A stretch of DNA of 62,437 nt, the filler included, from Planctomycetota bacterium (GTDB lineage Bacteria > Planctomycetota > Planctomycetia > JALXBF01), in assembly GCA_026991575.1 (NCBI GenBank). It is 5 parts of 5 records of this genome, joined end to end, with 100 filler letters (N's around TTAATTAATTAA, not from the genome) between each part and the next. Parts side by side here need not be neighbours in the genome. Positions count along the whole stretch, not along the records: positions 1 to 25,753 come from JALXBF010000028.1; 4 more parts are not named here. One strand, written 5' to 3'. Below the pieces are notes generated by a model that made no database searches, was not told the origin of the DNA, and saw only the letters and a list, made by a program, of their open reading frames with translations. Position 1 is the first letter of the stretch, and each line of letters starts with the position of its first letter. This document shows positions 15,461 through 60,566 of the stretch, one piece after another. The translations under genes were made by a program, and so were the position numbers.

Positions 15461-16126
15461 ATGTTGCCACGCGTTCTGGAACCGGAGGCAATGGATAGCG
15501 AGGAAGAGGCACGTGAGTACGACGAGATGGATCATTCGGAAGTCAACCGCCTCTTCGTCGCCGACTTCCTCGCCACCTCCCCATCCCTGCACACGGTCGT
15601 CGACCTAGGCACCGGCACGGCTCGGATCCCGATCGAGCTGTGCCGGCAGGCACCGTCGGCGCGCGTGCTGGCAGTGGATGTCGCCCAGTGGATGCTCCGC
15701 CGCGGTCGTTCGAATGTGCAGCAGGCTGGCTACAGTGACCGTATCCTGCTGCTTCGAGCCAACGCCCGCCGGCTGCCACTGGTCGACGGCGCCGCGGCGT
15801 CGGTCATGTCCAACAGCCTAATCCATCACATCCCTGAACCCGCCGAGGTGCTGGGAGAGATGGTCCGCATTCTCGCCCCCGGCGGCGTCCTCTTCATCCG
15901 CGACCTCATGCGACCGCACTCGCAGCAAGAGCTGCAACGGCTCGTGACACTTTACGCCAGCAACACCACAGCCAAGCAGCGTGCCATGTTCGCAGCCTCG
16001 CTGCATGCAGCCCTTACCGTGCCGGAGGTGCAAGCCCTTGGTCGGCGCTTCGGAATCCAGCCTGAGTCGGTTCGCCCCACCTCCGATCGTCACTGGACGC
16101 TGCTCTGGCGCCGTCCGCACGCCTAG
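15461..16126 (+). CDS. Class I SAM-dependent methyltransferase
   Basis: PRVLEPEAMD N-terminus, VDLGTGTA motif I, SNSLIHHI. Confidence 0.9.
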   Translation: MLPRVLEPEAMDSEEEAREYDEMDHSEVNRLFVADFLATSPSLHTVVDLGTGTARIPIELCRQAPSARVLAVDVAQWMLRRGRSNVQQAGYSDRILLLRANARRLPLVDGAAASVMSNSLIHHIPEPAEVLGEMVRILAPGGVLFIRDLMRPHSQQELQRLVTLYASNTTAKQRAMFAASLHAALTVPEVQALGRRFGIQPESVRPTSDRHWTLLWRRPHA

Positions 16127-17166
16127 CGGTCAGCAATATCGCGGAACGTCACCCGCCACCAGAGCCGGTCGCGGGATACCGGTCTGCCGTTGATCTCGGC
16201 ATGAGGGTAAACGAAGTAATTCAACTGCCCGGCAGCCGCCGGCGGCACTAGCGGTATGTCTCGACCGACGCTCAGCGCCACTCGGTTCTCGGTCAGATTG
16301 CCGAAATAGTACTCCGTAAGCGCGGGGTGCTTATCGGCCTCGGAGATGTCCACCGGTATCCACCCGATGCCGTCGACGTGGAAATACGCCCAGCAGTGGT
16401 AGCCCGGTATCACGCCATGGCCGCGTCGCTCCGGTAACGGGAAGCCAATCACGAATCGAGTGGGGATTCCGTAGTAGCGGGTCATGGCCATGAAAAGGCT
16501 GTGGAAGTCGGTGCAGTTCCCATAGCCGGCCTGGCAGGCCCACTCGACGCTGCCCCGTCCCCATCCGGTCCCCACCTTACGGTAGGTCATATGAGCCAGT
16601 ACCTTGTGGTAAATCGCATACGCCAGCCTGACTTCGTCCCCTTCGGAAGGAAGGCCCCGTAAGAGCCGCAGCGCAGGTCCGCCGACGGGAACCAGCCGAC
16701 TAGGGCTCAGGTACAGCTGCCGCTGCGTCTCGGACAGCTGCACCGGTACCACGTTGCTGGCTCCCTGGAACGCCCTGCCCCGATGTCCGCCAAAGACCGG
16801 AGCCCTCACTTCGACGCGCGTCAACTCAAGCTCCACCTGCACCGCCGCGCCCTCAACGGGCCCGGTCCACCGGGCAAACAGGATCTGGTTGCCGTAGCGG
16901 GGATCGCGGGTCAGTTGTATCCGGCCAGCGCCCCGAATTCGCACGCCATGCAGCCGCTGGTGCGGCGAATCATGCCACAGCGGCAGCCACAGCTGTACCG
17001 CCGTTCCAGGGTGCACGTCGCGCACACCAGCCTCATAGCGCAACACGAACCGCCGCGTAGCCGGTTGGCTCCGGTTCGAATCGTCCGAGCACTGAGCCGC
17101 CGAAACGACGAGCAGGACGGTCAGCAGCGCGGTGCGCAGCTGATGGCAAAGGGCTCTGCAGTACAT
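16123..17166 (-). CDS. Transglutaminase-like domain protein, exported
   Basis: GNCTDFHSLF (Cys), YHCWA (His), WIPVD (Asp) triad; signal peptide. Confidence 0.9.
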   Translation of the reverse strand: MYCRALCHQLRTALLTVLLVVSAAQCSDDSNRSQPATRRFVLRYEAGVRDVHPGTAVQLWLPLWHDSPHQRLHGVRIRGAGRIQLTRDPRYGNQILFARWTGPVEGAAVQVELELTRVEVRAPVFGGHRGRAFQGASNVVPVQLSETQRQLYLSPSRLVPVGGPALRLLRGLPSEGDEVRLAYAIYHKVLAHMTYRKVGTGWGRGSVEWACQAGYGNCTDFHSLFMAMTRYYGIPTRFVIGFPLPERRGHGVIPGYHCWAYFHVDGIGWIPVDISEADKHPALTEYYFGNLTENRVALSVGRDIPLVPPAAAGQLNYFVYPHAEINGRPVSRDRLWWRVTFRDIADR

Positions 17167-17465
17167 CGCGTTACCTCAGCCGCCGGTGTGGAACACTATG
17201 GAACGGGACCAATGGAGGGGAAGGCTTATCGAGCGGGCTTGTCCGGGAGCGGACACGCCGTTCCACTAGGCAGACAGGTGTCACCCGAAGCCGGAGGTGG
17301 TAGTTCGAAGCCGGCTCCGTCGCAGTCGCAGGCGTGTTGGCTCAGGCAATGCGCGGCGGCAACACATCTTCTCTCGAACTATACGACCTCTCGCCATTAT
17401 GCGTTGGCATGCTGGCGGCTGTCAAGCACGCCGCAACTGGTCGGCTGCGGACACCCCGTCGGTAC

Positions 17466-17492
17466 TTGACTGTGTGTGTGTGTGTGTAGACT
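17466..17492 (+). promoter_or_regulatory. sigma70-like promoter with a (TG)8 spacer
   Basis: TTGACT (17466-17471), 15-nt spacer made entirely of the TG repeat, TAGACT (17487-17492); 30 nt upstream of the 17523 ATG. Confidence 0.65.
17471..17486. repeat. (TG)8 dinucleotide microsatellite
   Basis: tgtgtgtgtgtgtgtg read directly; no other such run was noticed in the window. Confidence 0.95.
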
Positions 17493-17522
17493 TCTGATGG
17501 TCGAAGGGAGGAAGCCTCCGTC

Positions 17523-18380
17523 ATGGCGGCGCGTCGGTTTTGGTGTGTGGTAGCGGGAATCGTGCTCTTGGCGGCCGCGGTGGCGAAGTTCCAGGCCGGG
17601 ACGAGGCTTGCGTACCTGCCGGGACCGCTTGGCGTGGTTGACGCTAGCTGGCCGGCCATTGAAGCTCTCGTAGGAGTAGTCGCGCTGGCTGGTGCCGGTA
17701 GACGGTTGCCCCATCTTGCCGTTACGGCCGTATTTACGCTCATCTTTCTCGTCGCTTTGTACGTGGTGCTGGCGGGCTACCCGTCGTGCGGATGCTTCGG
17801 CGCGGTGGAGATTCCGCCGCTGTTCGTCGCTATGTTGGACGCGGTGATTTTGGCCGGCCTACTGTCTGCTTTCTCGCGGCGGGCCACGACCGCCCTCTTG
17901 ACCGCTGGCGCCGGCCTTGTCGCGGCCGTGTGTACAGCATGGGCACTTGCGCCACCTCCAGCTCCGCTGTATCCATTGGCATGTGGAATCTGGGTGCACC
18001 GCAACGCCGCGGTGGTGCATCTCGACCCCGAGCTATGGCTGGACAGGCAGTGTCCTGTCGGCCTTGTAGGACCAGGCGGCAACGGGCCAACGGCGACGTG
18101 GTGCGTGCTGGTCCGTCCCGACTGTGCTCGCTGCAAGAACTGGGCAGCAGACTTCAAACGCCTTGCCAAGCGGACTGGTGCTAGCTTTCGCGAGTTTGTC
18201 ATTGGAAGCCACACGATGAAGATTGGGAGCGGGCGTTACGAAATCTGCGCGTGGCAGGACCCGGTTGCGTTTCTTGTGGACCGCCGCGGAACAGTGCGAC
18301 GGGTAGAGCCATTTGCCCAGAAGAAGGCTAGGCAGCGAGGGGCTCCACCCCGCTGCCCTATGCGCTACGGCGCGTCGTGA
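17523..18380 (+). CDS. MauE/DoxX family membrane protein with a C-terminal thioredoxin-like CxxC segment
   Basis: LLAAAVAK helix, E in helix 2, SCGCFG motif, about 5 TM segments; later RPDCARC and DPVAF. Confidence 0.75.
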   Translation: MAARRFWCVVAGIVLLAAAVAKFQAGTRLAYLPGPLGVVDASWPAIEALVGVVALAGAGRRLPHLAVTAVFTLIFLVALYVVLAGYPSCGCFGAVEIPPLFVAMLDAVILAGLLSAFSRRATTALLTAGAGLVAAVCTAWALAPPPAPLYPLACGIWVHRNAAVVHLDPELWLDRQCPVGLVGPGGNGPTATWCVLVRPDCARCKNWAADFKRLAKRTGASFREFVIGSHTMKIGSGRYEICAWQDPVAFLVDRRGTVRRVEPFAQKKARQRGAPPRCPMRYGAS

Positions 18381-18738: not shown

Positions 18739-18840
18739 CCGGCGCACGTGGGACGTGGATACCGGGCAAGCCCGGCGTTCCGCGAAGGCAGTAGTGCTGA
18801 GTGGTCGGGGATCTTGCTCGCAAGGGCATGGCCCGGAGAG

Positions 18841-19974
18841 ATGGCCATGGTTGTATGGGTCAGAGGTGGTGTGACCGGTGCGTGTGTCATCGTCACCTTG
18901 TTTGTCAGCCAGCTGCGCCTTTACGCTCAACACGATAGCCGCCTCACCCCGAGCGCCCTGCGTGCAGCGTGGCGCCGTTGGGCCGAGGCGTTCCAGGAAC
19001 TTGCTTGGGAAGGGGTTTATACGTCGAACGTCGAAGAGATCGTTTACCGCAAGAAGACAGCCTCATCCTCAAACTCCGAAGTAAACAGAGACGACCAGGG
19101 ACAAACAGAGCTAGAAAAGGAAATCCGCTCCACTTACCACTACACGTTCCTGTGCAAGTGGCCGGAAATCGTATGGCGAGTTCGTCGAGAGGAAACAATC
19201 ACCAGGCCGGGCCAGCGGCCAACGAGCACCACCAAGCTATCGGCTGGGCTTCTGCGGCAGGGCAGACTCTTTGTGCTGACCGGTAGCGAGAACGGGTGGG
19301 TAGTGCGATCGGTGTTGATGGACGCGTACGACCCCGCGGCACCGCCGGACTATTGGACGCTACTTACGGCGCCGCTGGACGGGCGGGCGGACCACAAACA
19401 ATTCCGATCCTTTGTGTGCGCCCCCATGCGGTACTTGTGTCGGTACCTAGATTCAGGCCGTTTGCGGTTCGATCGTGTGGAATCGACCGACGAAGGATTG
19501 GCGGTAGAATGGCATCTAGAGCTCGAAGGGCTGCCTGAAAACGAGCGTGTCGACCTGACTCCATGGCAGCGGGGCCGCTGGATCCTTGATCCAAACAACT
19601 CGTACATGATCGTGCATTCCGTAATTGCCGGGCCACTGTACCATGGCGGAACCTCAAGACAAGAAGTGAAGGTTCGCTACCGTCGGTACCGAGGGGTTCC
19701 TCTCATGACAGGCGGAAGCCTCCATTTAGTACTGGAGGACGAGAAGTACCTCAATCGATTTACATCGCAGTGGAGCCGTGAGATAGAGCGCGTCTCCACG
19801 GAGGTGGATCGTTCGAAGCTGACACTGACGCGGTTTGGCCTTCCAGACGAGCTTCGGATAGGCCCTCCGACGAAGGGCGTTCCCAGATGGTCTCGCTTGC
19901 TGGTGGCGGCGGTAGCGTTGTTGATTTGTGGCATGCTTCTATGGTGGGTGCGCAGTAGGAAGACGGCGCTCTGA
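18841..19974 (+). CDS. Exported hypothetical protein with a C-terminal membrane anchor
   Basis: N-terminal hydrophobic signal; beta-rich body; C-terminal LLVAAVALLICGMLLWW followed by basic RSRK; start uncertain. Confidence 0.7.
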   Translation: MAMVVWVRGGVTGACVIVTLFVSQLRLYAQHDSRLTPSALRAAWRRWAEAFQELAWEGVYTSNVEEIVYRKKTASSSNSEVNRDDQGQTELEKEIRSTYHYTFLCKWPEIVWRVRREETITRPGQRPTSTTKLSAGLLRQGRLFVLTGSENGWVVRSVLMDAYDPAAPPDYWTLLTAPLDGRADHKQFRSFVCAPMRYLCRYLDSGRLRFDRVESTDEGLAVEWHLELEGLPENERVDLTPWQRGRWILDPNNSYMIVHSVIAGPLYHGGTSRQEVKVRYRRYRGVPLMTGGSLHLVLEDEKYLNRFTSQWSREIERVSTEVDRSKLTLTRFGLPDELRIGPPTKGVPRWSRLLVAAVALLICGMLLWWVRSRKTAL

Positions 19975-20139
19975 GCGAACAGCGTGCTATTTGTGCAAAG
20001 GAATGGTGGGTTGCTCGTTGGCGGGTCGAGGCGAGCGGCGGTGAGAGGCGCCGCTTGGGGAACACAGGGGGGCAGACCGTACATGGCGCCCGTTGGACTC
20101 AGGTGCGGACACGGTCGAGGGCGGTGTGCGGGGGTGGGG

Positions 20140-21885
20140 ATGGCGGCAGCCATCGGGTCGCTGTGGCTTGCCGCAGTGGCTCCGAGCCTCCTCGTACACG
20201 CGCCGAACGTGGACGAGCCGGCCCACTTGATGTCGGCCCTCGCGATCTACCGTCTCTACCGATTTGACATCTACGGGGTAAATCCGCCATTGACGCGAAT
20301 CATCGGCGGGCTCGGAGCATCTAGGTTGGCCCCGGGAGACGGTGACCTCTGGCGAGATTGGACTCGGTATGTCGACCACCCGGGGGCGTACACCGTCTTC
20401 CCCCACGCCCTGTCAACATTTGCGGATCAGCTGCCACACTCGTTCGATTGGCTGCGGGCAGCTCGAGTGGTGCTTGCCGTTGTCACGGTGCTGGGACCGC
20501 TGGCCGTCTGGCTTTGGGCAACTACCGCGTACGGACCGTGGTCCGGCTTGCTGGCCACGGCCCTGTACGGCTTGAACCCCGAGTTGCTACACTGGTCGGG
20601 ATGCCTGAATGCGGACGGCCTTGCGGCCGCGATGGCCGCTGCCACGGGACTTGCGTACGCACTGTACGTGGACAGCCCAACCGTGGGCCGTGCTACTCAG
20701 ACCGGGGTTGTCCTGGGCCTGGCGCTGCTAACGAAGTACACGCTTCTGCTGCTCGCCGTGTTCGTGATCTGTTCGGAGCTCGCCTGGGCGCTGTGGTTGG
20801 CCTTGAGCCGTAAGCGGCACGAGGCACTGAGTCGGCTGTTCCATCTGATGTTCGTCGCCGGGATCGCCTGCTTTGTGGTCAATCTGGGGTACGGAGGCAC
20901 CGGCCACTGGCGCGCGCTGGGCGAGTACACGTTTCGCAGTGATCCTCTGGCAACGGTTCGTTCCATCGCCGTCGCAATGACGGGTGGTCTTGTGCAGGAA
21001 ATTCCCCTGCCGGTGCCGGACCTGTACATATACGGTCTGGACGTCCAGCTGCACGACACGGCCATCGCCCGTCCCACGTGGGTAGCCGGCCGCCTGCATC
21101 CACACGGCGTCAGCTACTTCTACCTCTATGGGTTACTGGTGAAGCTCCCGCTCGGCTTTTGGATCCTTGTCCTCTGGCGCGCGGCCCAGGCACTTCGCAG
21201 GCCGGGACTACGAGAGGGACGTGCTGTACTGTACCAACTCGTGCCGGGCTTGCTGATCCTTGGCATGCTGTCAACATTCTCCACCCTGACCGTCTTCCTG
21301 CGCTACGCGACGCCTGTTCTGCCGTTTCTGATCGTCTGGACCAGCGGTCTACTTGGTGCAGGTCGCCCTCGATTCACGCGACTGGCTGCCGTGGTGTGCC
21401 TGCTTGGCTGGCAGCTCTGGGCCGTCGCTAGCGCTGCGCCGCACTACCACGCTTACCTGAACGAGTTGGTTGGCGGACCTGCCGGCGGCTACCGCTACTT
21501 CGCCGGCCCGTCGGTTTCGTTCTACGAGGACTTCTTCGTCGTCCGGCGGCTGTGGCAGCAATACCGCAACAAGGGTGAGCCCGTGTTCGTGTCTTTCCGG
21601 GACGCGTGCCGCCTAACCAGCTACTGGCGGCTGGACGCTCCCAAGGTACCACCTCCCGAAGAGTTCGGCGATTCAGGCCCCCCTGTCGGATGGTACATCG
21701 TGGACCCGCACACCCTGGTGCAGCTCTATCCGGAAGCTCCAGAGACACGTTTTCTGCACTACATCCGCTATCTCAACCCGGTAAGGGTCGAAGGCTCCGT
21801 ACTCGTGTATCATGTGACCAAAGAAGACGCGGCCAGAATAGCTCGGCTACTCGGAAGCGGGAACCAGTCATCCCCGGAGAGGTGA
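20140..21885 (+). CDS. GT-C fold glycosyltransferase (PMT_2/ArnT/GT39-like)
   Basis: NVDEPAHL, VNPPL, GLALLTKYT, YFYLYGLLVKLP, RY..P.LPFL, YLNELVGGP; multiple TM helices; start may be as early as 19984. Confidence 0.85.
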   Translation: MAAAIGSLWLAAVAPSLLVHAPNVDEPAHLMSALAIYRLYRFDIYGVNPPLTRIIGGLGASRLAPGDGDLWRDWTRYVDHPGAYTVFPHALSTFADQLPHSFDWLRAARVVLAVVTVLGPLAVWLWATTAYGPWSGLLATALYGLNPELLHWSGCLNADGLAAAMAAATGLAYALYVDSPTVGRATQTGVVLGLALLTKYTLLLLAVFVICSELAWALWLALSRKRHEALSRLFHLMFVAGIACFVVNLGYGGTGHWRALGEYTFRSDPLATVRSIAVAMTGGLVQEIPLPVPDLYIYGLDVQLHDTAIARPTWVAGRLHPHGVSYFYLYGLLVKLPLGFWILVLWRAAQALRRPGLREGRAVLYQLVPGLLILGMLSTFSTLTVFLRYATPVLPFLIVWTSGLLGAGRPRFTRLAAVVCLLGWQLWAVASAAPHYHAYLNELVGGPAGGYRYFAGPSVSFYEDFFVVRRLWQQYRNKGEPVFVSFRDACRLTSYWRLDAPKVPPPEEFGDSGPPVGWYIVDPHTLVQLYPEAPETRFLHYIRYLNPVRVEGSVLVYHVTKEDAARIARLLGSGNQSSPER

Positions 21886-25753: not shown

Positions 25754-25853
25754 NNNNNNNNNNNNNNNNNNNNNNNNNNNNNNNNNNNNNNNNNNNNTTA
25801 ATTAATTAANNNNNNNNNNNNNNNNNNNNNNNNNNNNNNNNNNNNNNNNNNNN
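25754..25853. other. Artificial contig linker
   Basis: N-run, TTAATTAATTAA (stops in all frames), N-run; identical at four positions. Confidence 0.97.
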
Positions 25854-51058: not shown

Positions 51059-51158
51059 NNNNNNNNNNNNNNNNNNNNNNNNNNNNNNNNNNNNNNNNNN
51101 NNTTAATTAATTAANNNNNNNNNNNNNNNNNNNNNNNNNNNNNNNNNNNNNNNNNNNN
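51059..51158. other. Artificial contig linker
   Basis: N-run/TTAATTAATTAA/N-run. Confidence 0.97.
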
Positions 51159-58455: not shown

Positions 58456-58555
58456 NNNNNNNNNNNNNNNNNNNNNNNNNNNNNNNNNNNNNNNNNNNNT
58501 TAATTAATTAANNNNNNNNNNNNNNNNNNNNNNNNNNNNNNNNNNNNNNNNNNNN
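58456..58555. other. Artificial contig linker
   Basis: N-run/TTAATTAATTAA/N-run. Confidence 0.97.
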
Positions 58556-60466: not shown

Positions 60467-60566
60467 NNNNNNNNNNNNNNNNNNNNNNNNNNNNNNNNNN
60501 NNNNNNNNNNTTAATTAATTAANNNNNNNNNNNNNNNNNNNNNNNNNNNNNNNNNNNNNNNNNNNN
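60467..60566. other. Artificial contig linker
   Basis: N-run/TTAATTAATTAA/N-run. Confidence 0.97.

Follow-up and report, generated by a model that had tools for sequence, protein, structure and literature searches.

A TG-repeat spacer in a predicted promoter upstream of an envelope operon: a candidate repeat-length switch within a class of like-built promoters in a vent planctomycete

Upstream of a three-gene operon in the genome of a free-living, uncultured planctomycete recovered from a vent metagenome (Planctomycetota bacterium, GCA_026991575.1; hereafter G000), the entire gap between the -35-like and -10-like hexamers of a predicted sigma-70-type promoter consists of TG repeats. This promoter is probably a repeat-length switch, captured in the assembly as a weak or OFF allele, and one of a set of contingency promoters in the same organism. 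The stretch of DNA analysed (the window; 62,437 nucleotides) is not a single molecule: it is made of five contigs (C28, C30, C46, C59 and C62) joined by N-padded linkers at window positions 25754-25853, 51059-51158, 58456-58555 and 60467-60566. The promoter lies on contig C28, which occupies positions 1-25753. The G000 assembly as a whole comprises 4.96 Mb in 191 contigs, with a G+C content of 64%.

Results

Anatomy of the TG-repeat promoter

By sequence reading, the -35-like hexamer is TTGACT (17466-17471, + strand); the -10-like hexamer, TAGACT, lies at 17487-17492 on the same strand, and the 15 nt that separate them, GTGTGTGTGTGTGTG or (GT)7G, take up the whole of the gap (17472-17486). Tandem Repeats Finder describes the tract, without strand and with 100% matches, as a (TG)8.5 microsatellite at 17471-17487, the sole period-2 array among its 32 rows for the window, and the repeat is one of only 11 dinucleotide runs of at least 13 nt in the 4.96 Mb of G000. 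Scored with a weight matrix derived from the canonical promoters of this genome, TAGACT is the top pick at the locus (7.7, against 8.0 for the best -10), and the hexamer occurs three times in the 16-18-nt spacing peak described below against once in the background; it scores as a good putative -10 for this organism.

From the geometry of sigma-70 promoters, transcription is predicted to start about 7 nt past the -10, at 17499-17500 (+). A Shine-Dalgarno-like GGGAGG follows at 17506-17511 (+), 11 nt before the ATG of gene 1 (17523), which itself stands 30 nt from TAGACT, and the -35, the repeat spacer, the -10, the Shine-Dalgarno motif and the start codon are found in proper order. At 17466-17492, a simple sequence repeat is thus set between the -35 and -10 of a predicted sigma-70-type promoter, and the coordinates agree with those of an earlier, sequence-only reading of this DNA, which had placed TTGACT-15 nt-TAGACT 30 nt upstream of the first gene of the cluster. 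The same reading had pointed to the 17-nt spacer of a tRNA promoter in the window, and this is borne out by TTGACC-17 nt-TACCAT at 2413-2441, which precedes the tRNA-Glu gene at 2487.

Among the promoter-like sites listed for the 356-bp intergenic region, there is no second one on the + strand. On the opposite strand, TTGACA-18-CATAAT (17396-17425, minus; 11/12 matches) is a candidate promoter for the divergent transglutaminase-like gene; it lies 41 nt from the TG promoter and does not overlap the repeat. No operator-like inverted repeat (palindrome) was found in the region, and the two Rfam matches obtained there both scored far under the gathering score.

The operon downstream and its neighbour

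Gene 1 (17523-18380, +) encodes a MauE-like (DoxX-type) membrane protein of 285 aa matching Pfam PF07291 with an E value of 2.9e-5, at 24.8 bits, slightly below the cut-off of 27. A locally built HMM identifies it as one of five MauE-like paralogues in G000; a paralogue of gene 1 at C118:57789-58574 is devoid of a repeat promoter and displays only a G8 run, inside the gene or at its 5' end. The product of gene 2 (18748-19974, +) is an orphan protein of 408 aa without Pfam or NCBIfam match, whose nearest Atlas clusters (score 0.96) are hypothetical proteins mostly from Planctomycetota. It is not recognisable as a DUF1573 paralogue: the C28 operon, searched by tblastn with DUF1573-like sequences and further paralogues, gave no match at 1e-3. 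Gene 3 (19984-21885, +) encodes a PMT_2 (ArnT/PMT-type) glycosyltransferase of 633 aa (PF13231, E 2e-7; 31.8 bits, above the cut-off). The divergent neighbour (16123-17166, minus) is the transglutaminase-like gene (PF01841, E 1.9e-22).

Spacer preference and association of repeats with the -35 motif

The spacing preference of G000 was read from all TTGACN-k-TANNNT pairs with k of 8-31. Spacers of 16, 17 and 18 nt occur 47, 72 and 52 times, respectively, over a background of about 22, and TAGAAT, TAGCAT, TAGGAT and TATACT are the -10 hexamers enriched in this peak. A spacer of 15 nt lies outside the preferred range, since the corresponding count (19) is at background level; the hexamer pair alone, at this distance, is a chance-level occurrence. 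None of the 171 canonically spaced (16-18 nt) pairs of G000 has a pure repeat as its spacer.

The coincidence of repeat and -35 motif is another matter. TTGAC adjoins 6 of the 11 dinucleotide runs of at least 12-13 nt in G000, against 1.1% of 200,000 random positions, and is likewise found beside 8 of 71 dinucleotide runs of at least 10 nt, 9 of 125 trinucleotide runs of at least 12 nt and 1 of 111 homopolymer runs of at least 8 nt. Beside long dinucleotide runs, it ranks first of the 1024 possible 5-mers, the next being TGACA, CTTGA and ACTTG, all of which overlap with it, and AGTCT, the complement of AGACT, recurs on the opposite side of the runs. When 60 word permutations were compared, a repeat of at least 12 nt followed TTGAC at 17 sites, the overlapping CTTGA at 14, TACGT at 11 and each of the others at 7 or fewer. 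The association between repeats and TTGAC is non-random.

Enrichment of TACGT beside repeats was ruled out as a real signal, as it stems mainly from a coding element present in many copies, which accounts, with near-identical flanks, for 9 of the 11 sites; the remaining two are unrelated. Paralogy inflates counts of words beside repeats. The nine near-identical copies, which contain TACGT-(GTG)4, map to contigs C139, C143, C149 (two), C157, C165, C167 and C173 (two), several of them near contig ends, and the element is probably an insertion sequence or other multi-copy gene.

A genome-wide class of repeat-spacer promoters

The TG promoter of C28 is one of about 17 promoters of the type TTGAC(A)-di-/trinucleotide repeat-(-10) in G000, a count that leaves out one CCGG site devoid of a -10 and for which one (GCGAG)3 site is treated as doubtful; the catalogued repeats are perfect by construction of the search. 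Those with dinucleotide units comprise TTGACA-(GA)7-C-TAGCAT (C6:89914), TTGACAG-(TC)6.5-TTCTC-TAGACT (C151:712), TTGACA-(AG)7-... (C104:26634), TTGACA-(CA)4-GGAGCAG-TAAGAT (C122:4084) and, at two loci 8 kb apart on C33 (positions 48255 and 56517 of that contig), TTGACA-(GT)10-... and TTGACA-(CA)12-AAT-TAACAT. Trinucleotide units are found in TTGACA-(AGG)n-ATAAT (four loci on C63, two on C74 and one each at C39:18390 and C129:8028) and in TTGACAG-(AGA)7-TAAT (C118:18336), such that the repeat units of the class are TG, AC, AG, TC, AGG and AGA. At the end of contig C54 (1952-1964), the contig stops inside a (TC/AG)6.5 run, leaving the -35 side absent from the assembly; beyond the run come TAGAAT and, 19 nt further on, the ATG of a DUF1573-like gene. 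C54 is the only contig of G000 that breaks within a repeat and no partner contig was found for it, so that assembly breaks give no evidence of heterogeneity.

A co-oriented ORF lies downstream of every one of the approximately 17 catalogued loci, and at each locus inspected the orientation is suitable and a Shine-Dalgarno motif and ATG lie at a fitting distance. What follows most of the promoters is either an operon of one of the paralogous types (MauE-like, DUF1573 or DUF1559) or an orphan gene for a secreted protein. One operon type, in which a MauE-like gene is followed by a DUF1573 (Ig-like) gene and further genes, is represented on C28, C6, C33, C104 and C151, with a PMT_2 glycosyltransferase as the last gene in two cases; another, in which a DUF1573-like gene precedes DUF1559/H-X9-DG pseudopilin-like genes, is found on C33 and C122. 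DUF1559, the H-X9-DG domain and DUF1573 are families typical of the phylum Planctomycetes, and their presence agrees with the assignment of this DNA to the phylum, which the Atlas result for gene 2 also supports. A further DUF1559 gene, on C139, is preceded by an AC run of only 10 nt, below the catalogue threshold. The orphan genes of C63, C74 and C129 encode proteins whose N-termini, judged by eye, are hydrophobic and signal-peptide-like.

Two sites on C118 deserve separate mention. Downstream of TTGACAG-(AGA)7 lies a gene (C118:18882-20291; L110:883-2292) for a 469-aa protein combining a Peptidase_C39 domain with a DUF1573/PapD-like Ig domain. The doubtful pentamer site, TTGACG-(GCGAG)3 (C118:70341-70360, minus; L111), is located about 560 nt upstream of a 693-aa ORF followed by ORFs of 367 and 506 aa, which, from their N-terminal sequences, may be prkA-, yeaH- and spoVR-like. 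This short pentamer repeat is probably stable and part of a canonically spaced promoter.

Spacer register

In a register test based on the -10 weight matrix of the G000 canonical promoters, the top-scoring hexamer was taken from -5 to +12 nt of each repeat end. The dinucleotide spacers of G000 then measure 15 nt on C28, C6 and C122, 17 nt on C104 (with a weak GAGAAT), 19 nt on C151, and 23 nt (weak) and 27 nt at the two C33 loci; those of G001, a genome of the same family and another genus, measure 17, 19, 19, 21, 21 and 23 nt. Spacers are odd (15-27 nt) at 13 of 13 dinucleotide loci, seven in G000 and six in G001, and 17 nt is therefore reachable by whole repeat units; the same holds for 9 of 9 dinucleotide loci with a -10 score of at least 7. 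This parity is not built in, because the flanking non-repeat bases range from 0 to 7 nt. At the trinucleotide loci, the top picks of (AGG)n-GATAAT (11, 11, 14, 14 and 35 nt) and that of the (AGA)7 locus (20 nt) are all congruent with 17 modulo 3. On C74, the long copy would have a spacer of 29 nt if measured to its mutated GATAAC, which is not the top -10 pick there. A narrow optimum at 16-18 nt, with whole-unit steps leading into and out of 17, is thus found in silico. We note that the parity test was conceived after seeing the data and that some loci are paralogues, so that the result is only suggestive of a functional coupling of the putative -35 and -10 boxes at 17 nt.

Few of the loci presently stand at the preferred spacing. 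Within the G000 class, only C104 (17 nt, weak GAGAAT) and C129 (16 nt, TAGAGT) fall within 16-18 nt, the doubtful (GCGAG)3 site (C118:70360) likewise having 17 nt (CACAAT), and a single locus does so in G001 (17 nt, weak GAGAAT). Either nearly all of the loci are OFF, or spacing is not the sole determinant of their activity.

Repeat number among paralogues and relatives

On C63, three tandem units bear (AGG)12, (AGG)4 and (AGG)4, although 123-132 of the 140 bases upstream are identical between their flanks (132 between copies a and b). The upstream flanks of these paralogues are about 6% diverged, and the repeat differences accordingly reflect lability over evolutionary time, not rapid switching. 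The array (C63:16837-21274, minus; L107) comprises three or four paralogous units, each consisting of a small ORF with a signal-peptide-like start and an orphan protein of 349-397 aa (41-68% mutually identical); a separate TTGACA-(AGG)n-ATAAT promoter precedes each of three units. The two units of C74 differ as (AGG)10 and (AGG)5, the -10 of the long copy being changed to GATAAC.

The architecture extends to relatives. In G001, TTGAC(A) adjoins 4 of 4 (AG) loci and 2 of 3 (AC) loci with at least seven units, and MauE-like ORFs, detected with the HMM built from G000, lie downstream of 4 of the 6 TTGAC-repeat loci. Together, the approximately 17 loci of G000 and the six of G001 make up a multi-locus repeat set that is enriched at surface or envelope genes, the repeats being retained between relatives while their unit and length vary. 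A search of 301 genomes of the class for TTGACN{0,1}(AG)6 gave nine matches in five of them (two in G000, four in G001 and one each in G075, G251 and G296), and the reversed control pattern gave none in the 301 genomes; from this spread, the AG type is concentrated in the family of G000 and G001 and occurs only sporadically outside it. An orthologous locus, with downstream proteins that are 59% identical, is shared by G075 and G251, which are different species of one further genus. Here one species carries TTGACG-(AG)6-AAAA-TACGTT and the other TTGAC-(AG)11-TAGTAT (spacers counted by eye), in non-coding flanks that have otherwise diverged. Along with C63 and C74, this pair shows repeat number changing on an evolutionary scale while the putative boxes persist. 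The comparison with relatives that the sequence-only reading had proposed thus reveals a difference in repeat number between orthologues, (AG)6 against (AG)11; for the C28 locus itself, no conspecific strain of G000 was found in the metagenome contigs.

Repeats of other kinds were encountered elsewhere. G002 and G003, of the same order, have long repeats located mostly at contig ends, none of them with TTGAC; in G002, a compound (CT)19(GT)20 lies at the ends of two contigs, C123 (L039, 18-95) and C183 (L065, 1501-1538), with no adjacent TTGAC. In G008, also outside the family of G000, TTGAC is followed directly by G13 about 60-100 nt upstream of a MauE-like gene (C31, L007, 1389-1406) and is a homopolymer version of the repeat-spacer architecture. 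In G018, from another family of the class, a (GGCT)8.75 repeat that coincides with the start of a MauE-like gene or immediately precedes it (C59, L011, 1451-1485) is a candidate translational or leader repeat switch.

The sequencing data searched were three runs of one study, all as Logan contigs and none on record as RNA. A single contig (depth 44) of run X1, probably the source run, spans the TG locus and is identical to the window; no contig of runs X2 and X3 was placed on the locus. As assembled contigs drop minority alleles, this one identical contig cannot show minority TG lengths. In the metagenome contigs, a search for relatives of gene 1 returned 181 pattern matches, none of which was confirmed, and a flank-anchored DNA pattern with a variable gap at the TG locus returned none. 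The tract-length differences that we report are therefore those between paralogues (C63, C74) and between species (G075/G251), the C28 locus being represented by one contig.

Discussion

We propose that the TG tract would serve as the spacer of a sigma-70-type promoter driving the three-gene envelope operon. With n TG units, the spacer would measure 2n-1 nt: the assembled n = 8 would give 15 nt, a sub-optimal length at which the promoter should be weak or OFF, whereas the optimal 17 nt would be reached with n = 9, and 19 nt with n = 10. That one extra unit would lead to exactly 17 nt, as earlier claimed, holds by this relation and falls on the 16-18-nt peak of G000. Slipped-strand mispairing in replication would change n by whole units, and the population would hold heritable and reversible ON and OFF variants; the approximately 17 like-built promoters would act as a contingency set varying the cell envelope combinatorially. 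MutS and MutL are both present in G000, so that slippage would be at least partly corrected, and (TG)8 is a modest tract. The idea of a phase-variable promoter, put forward by the sequence-only reading, gains from the position of 15 nt outside the preferred range, from the good -10 and from the existence of a class that extends across the genome and beyond the genus, as would be expected of contingency loci. From these sequence features we infer promoter activity and its start site, an OFF state for the 15-nt allele and stochastic switching at an appreciable frequency.

Other readings of the same features were weighed. It is very improbable that the locus has no promoter, i.e. that chance hexamers happen to lie beside a neutral, slippage-born intergenic microsatellite and that the operon is transcribed from elsewhere. 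The background frequency of TTGACN-15-TANNNT (19 in G000) would agree with such a coincidence; yet the repeat/TTGAC association is far above chance in G000, in G001 and class-wide, every locus inspected has a Shine-Dalgarno motif and an ATG in fitting orientation and at a fitting distance, and no alternative + strand promoter-like site is listed in the intergenic region. Improbable, too, is an action of the repeats through non-B DNA, the promoter being a supercoiling sensor, or through a spacer that is the binding site of a regulator. Under negative supercoiling, Z-DNA can arise in (TG)n, and triplex H-DNA in (AG)n, (AGG)n and (AGA)n. All TTGAC-adjacent units are either alternating purine-pyrimidine (TG/AC) or homopurine-homopyrimidine mirror (AG/TC, AGG, AGA) sequences, both of them classical non-B formers, the class has no AT or CG dinucleotide tracts, and spacers of 23-35 nt would be unworkable as plain B-DNA spacers, all of which speaks for an unusual structure. 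A tract of 15 bp, however, offers little length for a Z or H transition to be stable, the two classes of repeats form different structures and yet occupy the same place in the promoter, this model has no need of a repeat number that varies between copies, and no operator-like palindrome was found in the region.

A reading that we regard as rather unlikely accepts the promoter as real and sees in the repeat an evolutionary tuning knob or rheostat, effectively fixed in length, which sets a low constitutive level of expression and changes only slowly. Only fixed differences between paralogues or species were observed, no within-population variant was seen (one contig, depth 44), mismatch-repair genes are present, and the spacers range from 11 to 35 nt, as expected from drift; moreover, a rheostat-type repeat is described for Helicobacter pylori sabA in the accessible part of PMC4081817. 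Contigs, however, are unable to show minority alleles; perfect, uninterrupted tracts of 13-37 nt are inherently unstable, and point mutations erode them if neither renewal nor selection intervenes; and the 17-nt register, found at 13 of 13 dinucleotide loci, suggests visits to the ON length and selection for it. The repeat-length switch is the reading that we prefer.

Such a switch would belong to an established class of mechanisms. Repeats between the -10 and -35 are known to modulate expression around an optimum of 17/18 nt, hif and porA being cited as examples (PMC4235727), as the sequence-only reading had described these precedents. The (TA)n promoter of hifA/hifB in Haemophilus influenzae (van Ham et al. 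1993, as cited in PMC4235727 and in the accessible part of PMC11868660) is the closest parallel: in both systems, a dinucleotide repeat constitutes the -35/-10 spacer, whole-unit changes move (or, on C28, would move) this spacer through the optimum of about 17 nt, the genes controlled concern the envelope or a surface structure, and the intergenic region is divergent. The two differ in that the hif repeat is common to two overlapping divergent promoters, whereas the divergent promoter of C28 (17425..17396) lies outside the repeat, in the unit (TA as opposed to TG), and in the host, a host-adapted pathogen in one case and a free-living vent planctomycete, whose switching is predicted only, in the other. 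The porA, opc and fetA genes of Neisseria meningitidis, as presented in the accessible part of PMC4235727, likewise have a repeat between the -10 and -35, with high, intermediate and low expression centred on one tract length, and, as in G000, several loci per genome, there forming a phasotype; their tracts are homopolymers (poly-G/poly-C), whereas those of G000 are di- or trinucleotide.

The C63 array, with its (AGG)12, (AGG)4 and (AGG)4, resembles in layout yet another system, the vlp lipoprotein family of Mycoplasma hyorhinis. Each vlp promoter has a poly-A tract in its spacer, and the family consists of paralogous tandem surface-protein genes, each with a repeat-bearing promoter, most of which are at non-optimal lengths at once. 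The small number of G000 loci at 16-18 nt would fit a mostly-OFF family of this kind. The vlp tracts differ in being homopolymers, the gene families and phylum are unrelated, and the ON/OFF pattern of G000 is a prediction.

Taken alone, the C28 locus is thus ordinary in mechanism. Its interest lies in its belonging to a multi-locus system that is conserved and that occurs in a phylum and a lifestyle from which such switches are not known to have been described. In the accessible parts of PMC4235727 and PMC11868660, nearly all known cases of repeat-driven phase variation are from commensals and pathogens adapted to a host, and that of PMC4060949 offers general repeat statistics by phylum only. 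No paper linking Planctomycetes with repeat-mediated phase variation was found in the literature outside subscription journals, which accords with the earlier statement that the phenomenon appeared not to have been described in this group.

We tentatively suggest, giving the idea a little less than even weight, that a planctomycete family, and sporadically other Planctomycetia, may run a large promoter 'phasome' of more than 12 sigma-70 promoters per genome, their spacers consisting wholly of di- or trinucleotide repeats, that stochastically switch paralogous envelope operons (MauE-like/DUF1573/PMT_2, DUF1573/DUF1559 pseudopilin-like and orphan secreted proteins). If true, no system of this kind and scale would have been known before except in host-associated bacteria, and it would endow a free-living vent bacterium with combinatorial surface diversity, which could plausibly hedge its bets against phages or grazers; it would also provide a functional handle on the large DUF1559 and DUF1573 expansions. 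The register screen is a cheap in-silico test that is applicable to further genomes. A metagenome consensus assembly can show operons of this kind OFF and, in this respect, be unrepresentative of all cells. The set of promoters would extend contingency loci to environmental bacteria, and would link the enigmatic and expanded DUF1559, DUF1573 and MauE-like families to variable envelope functions.
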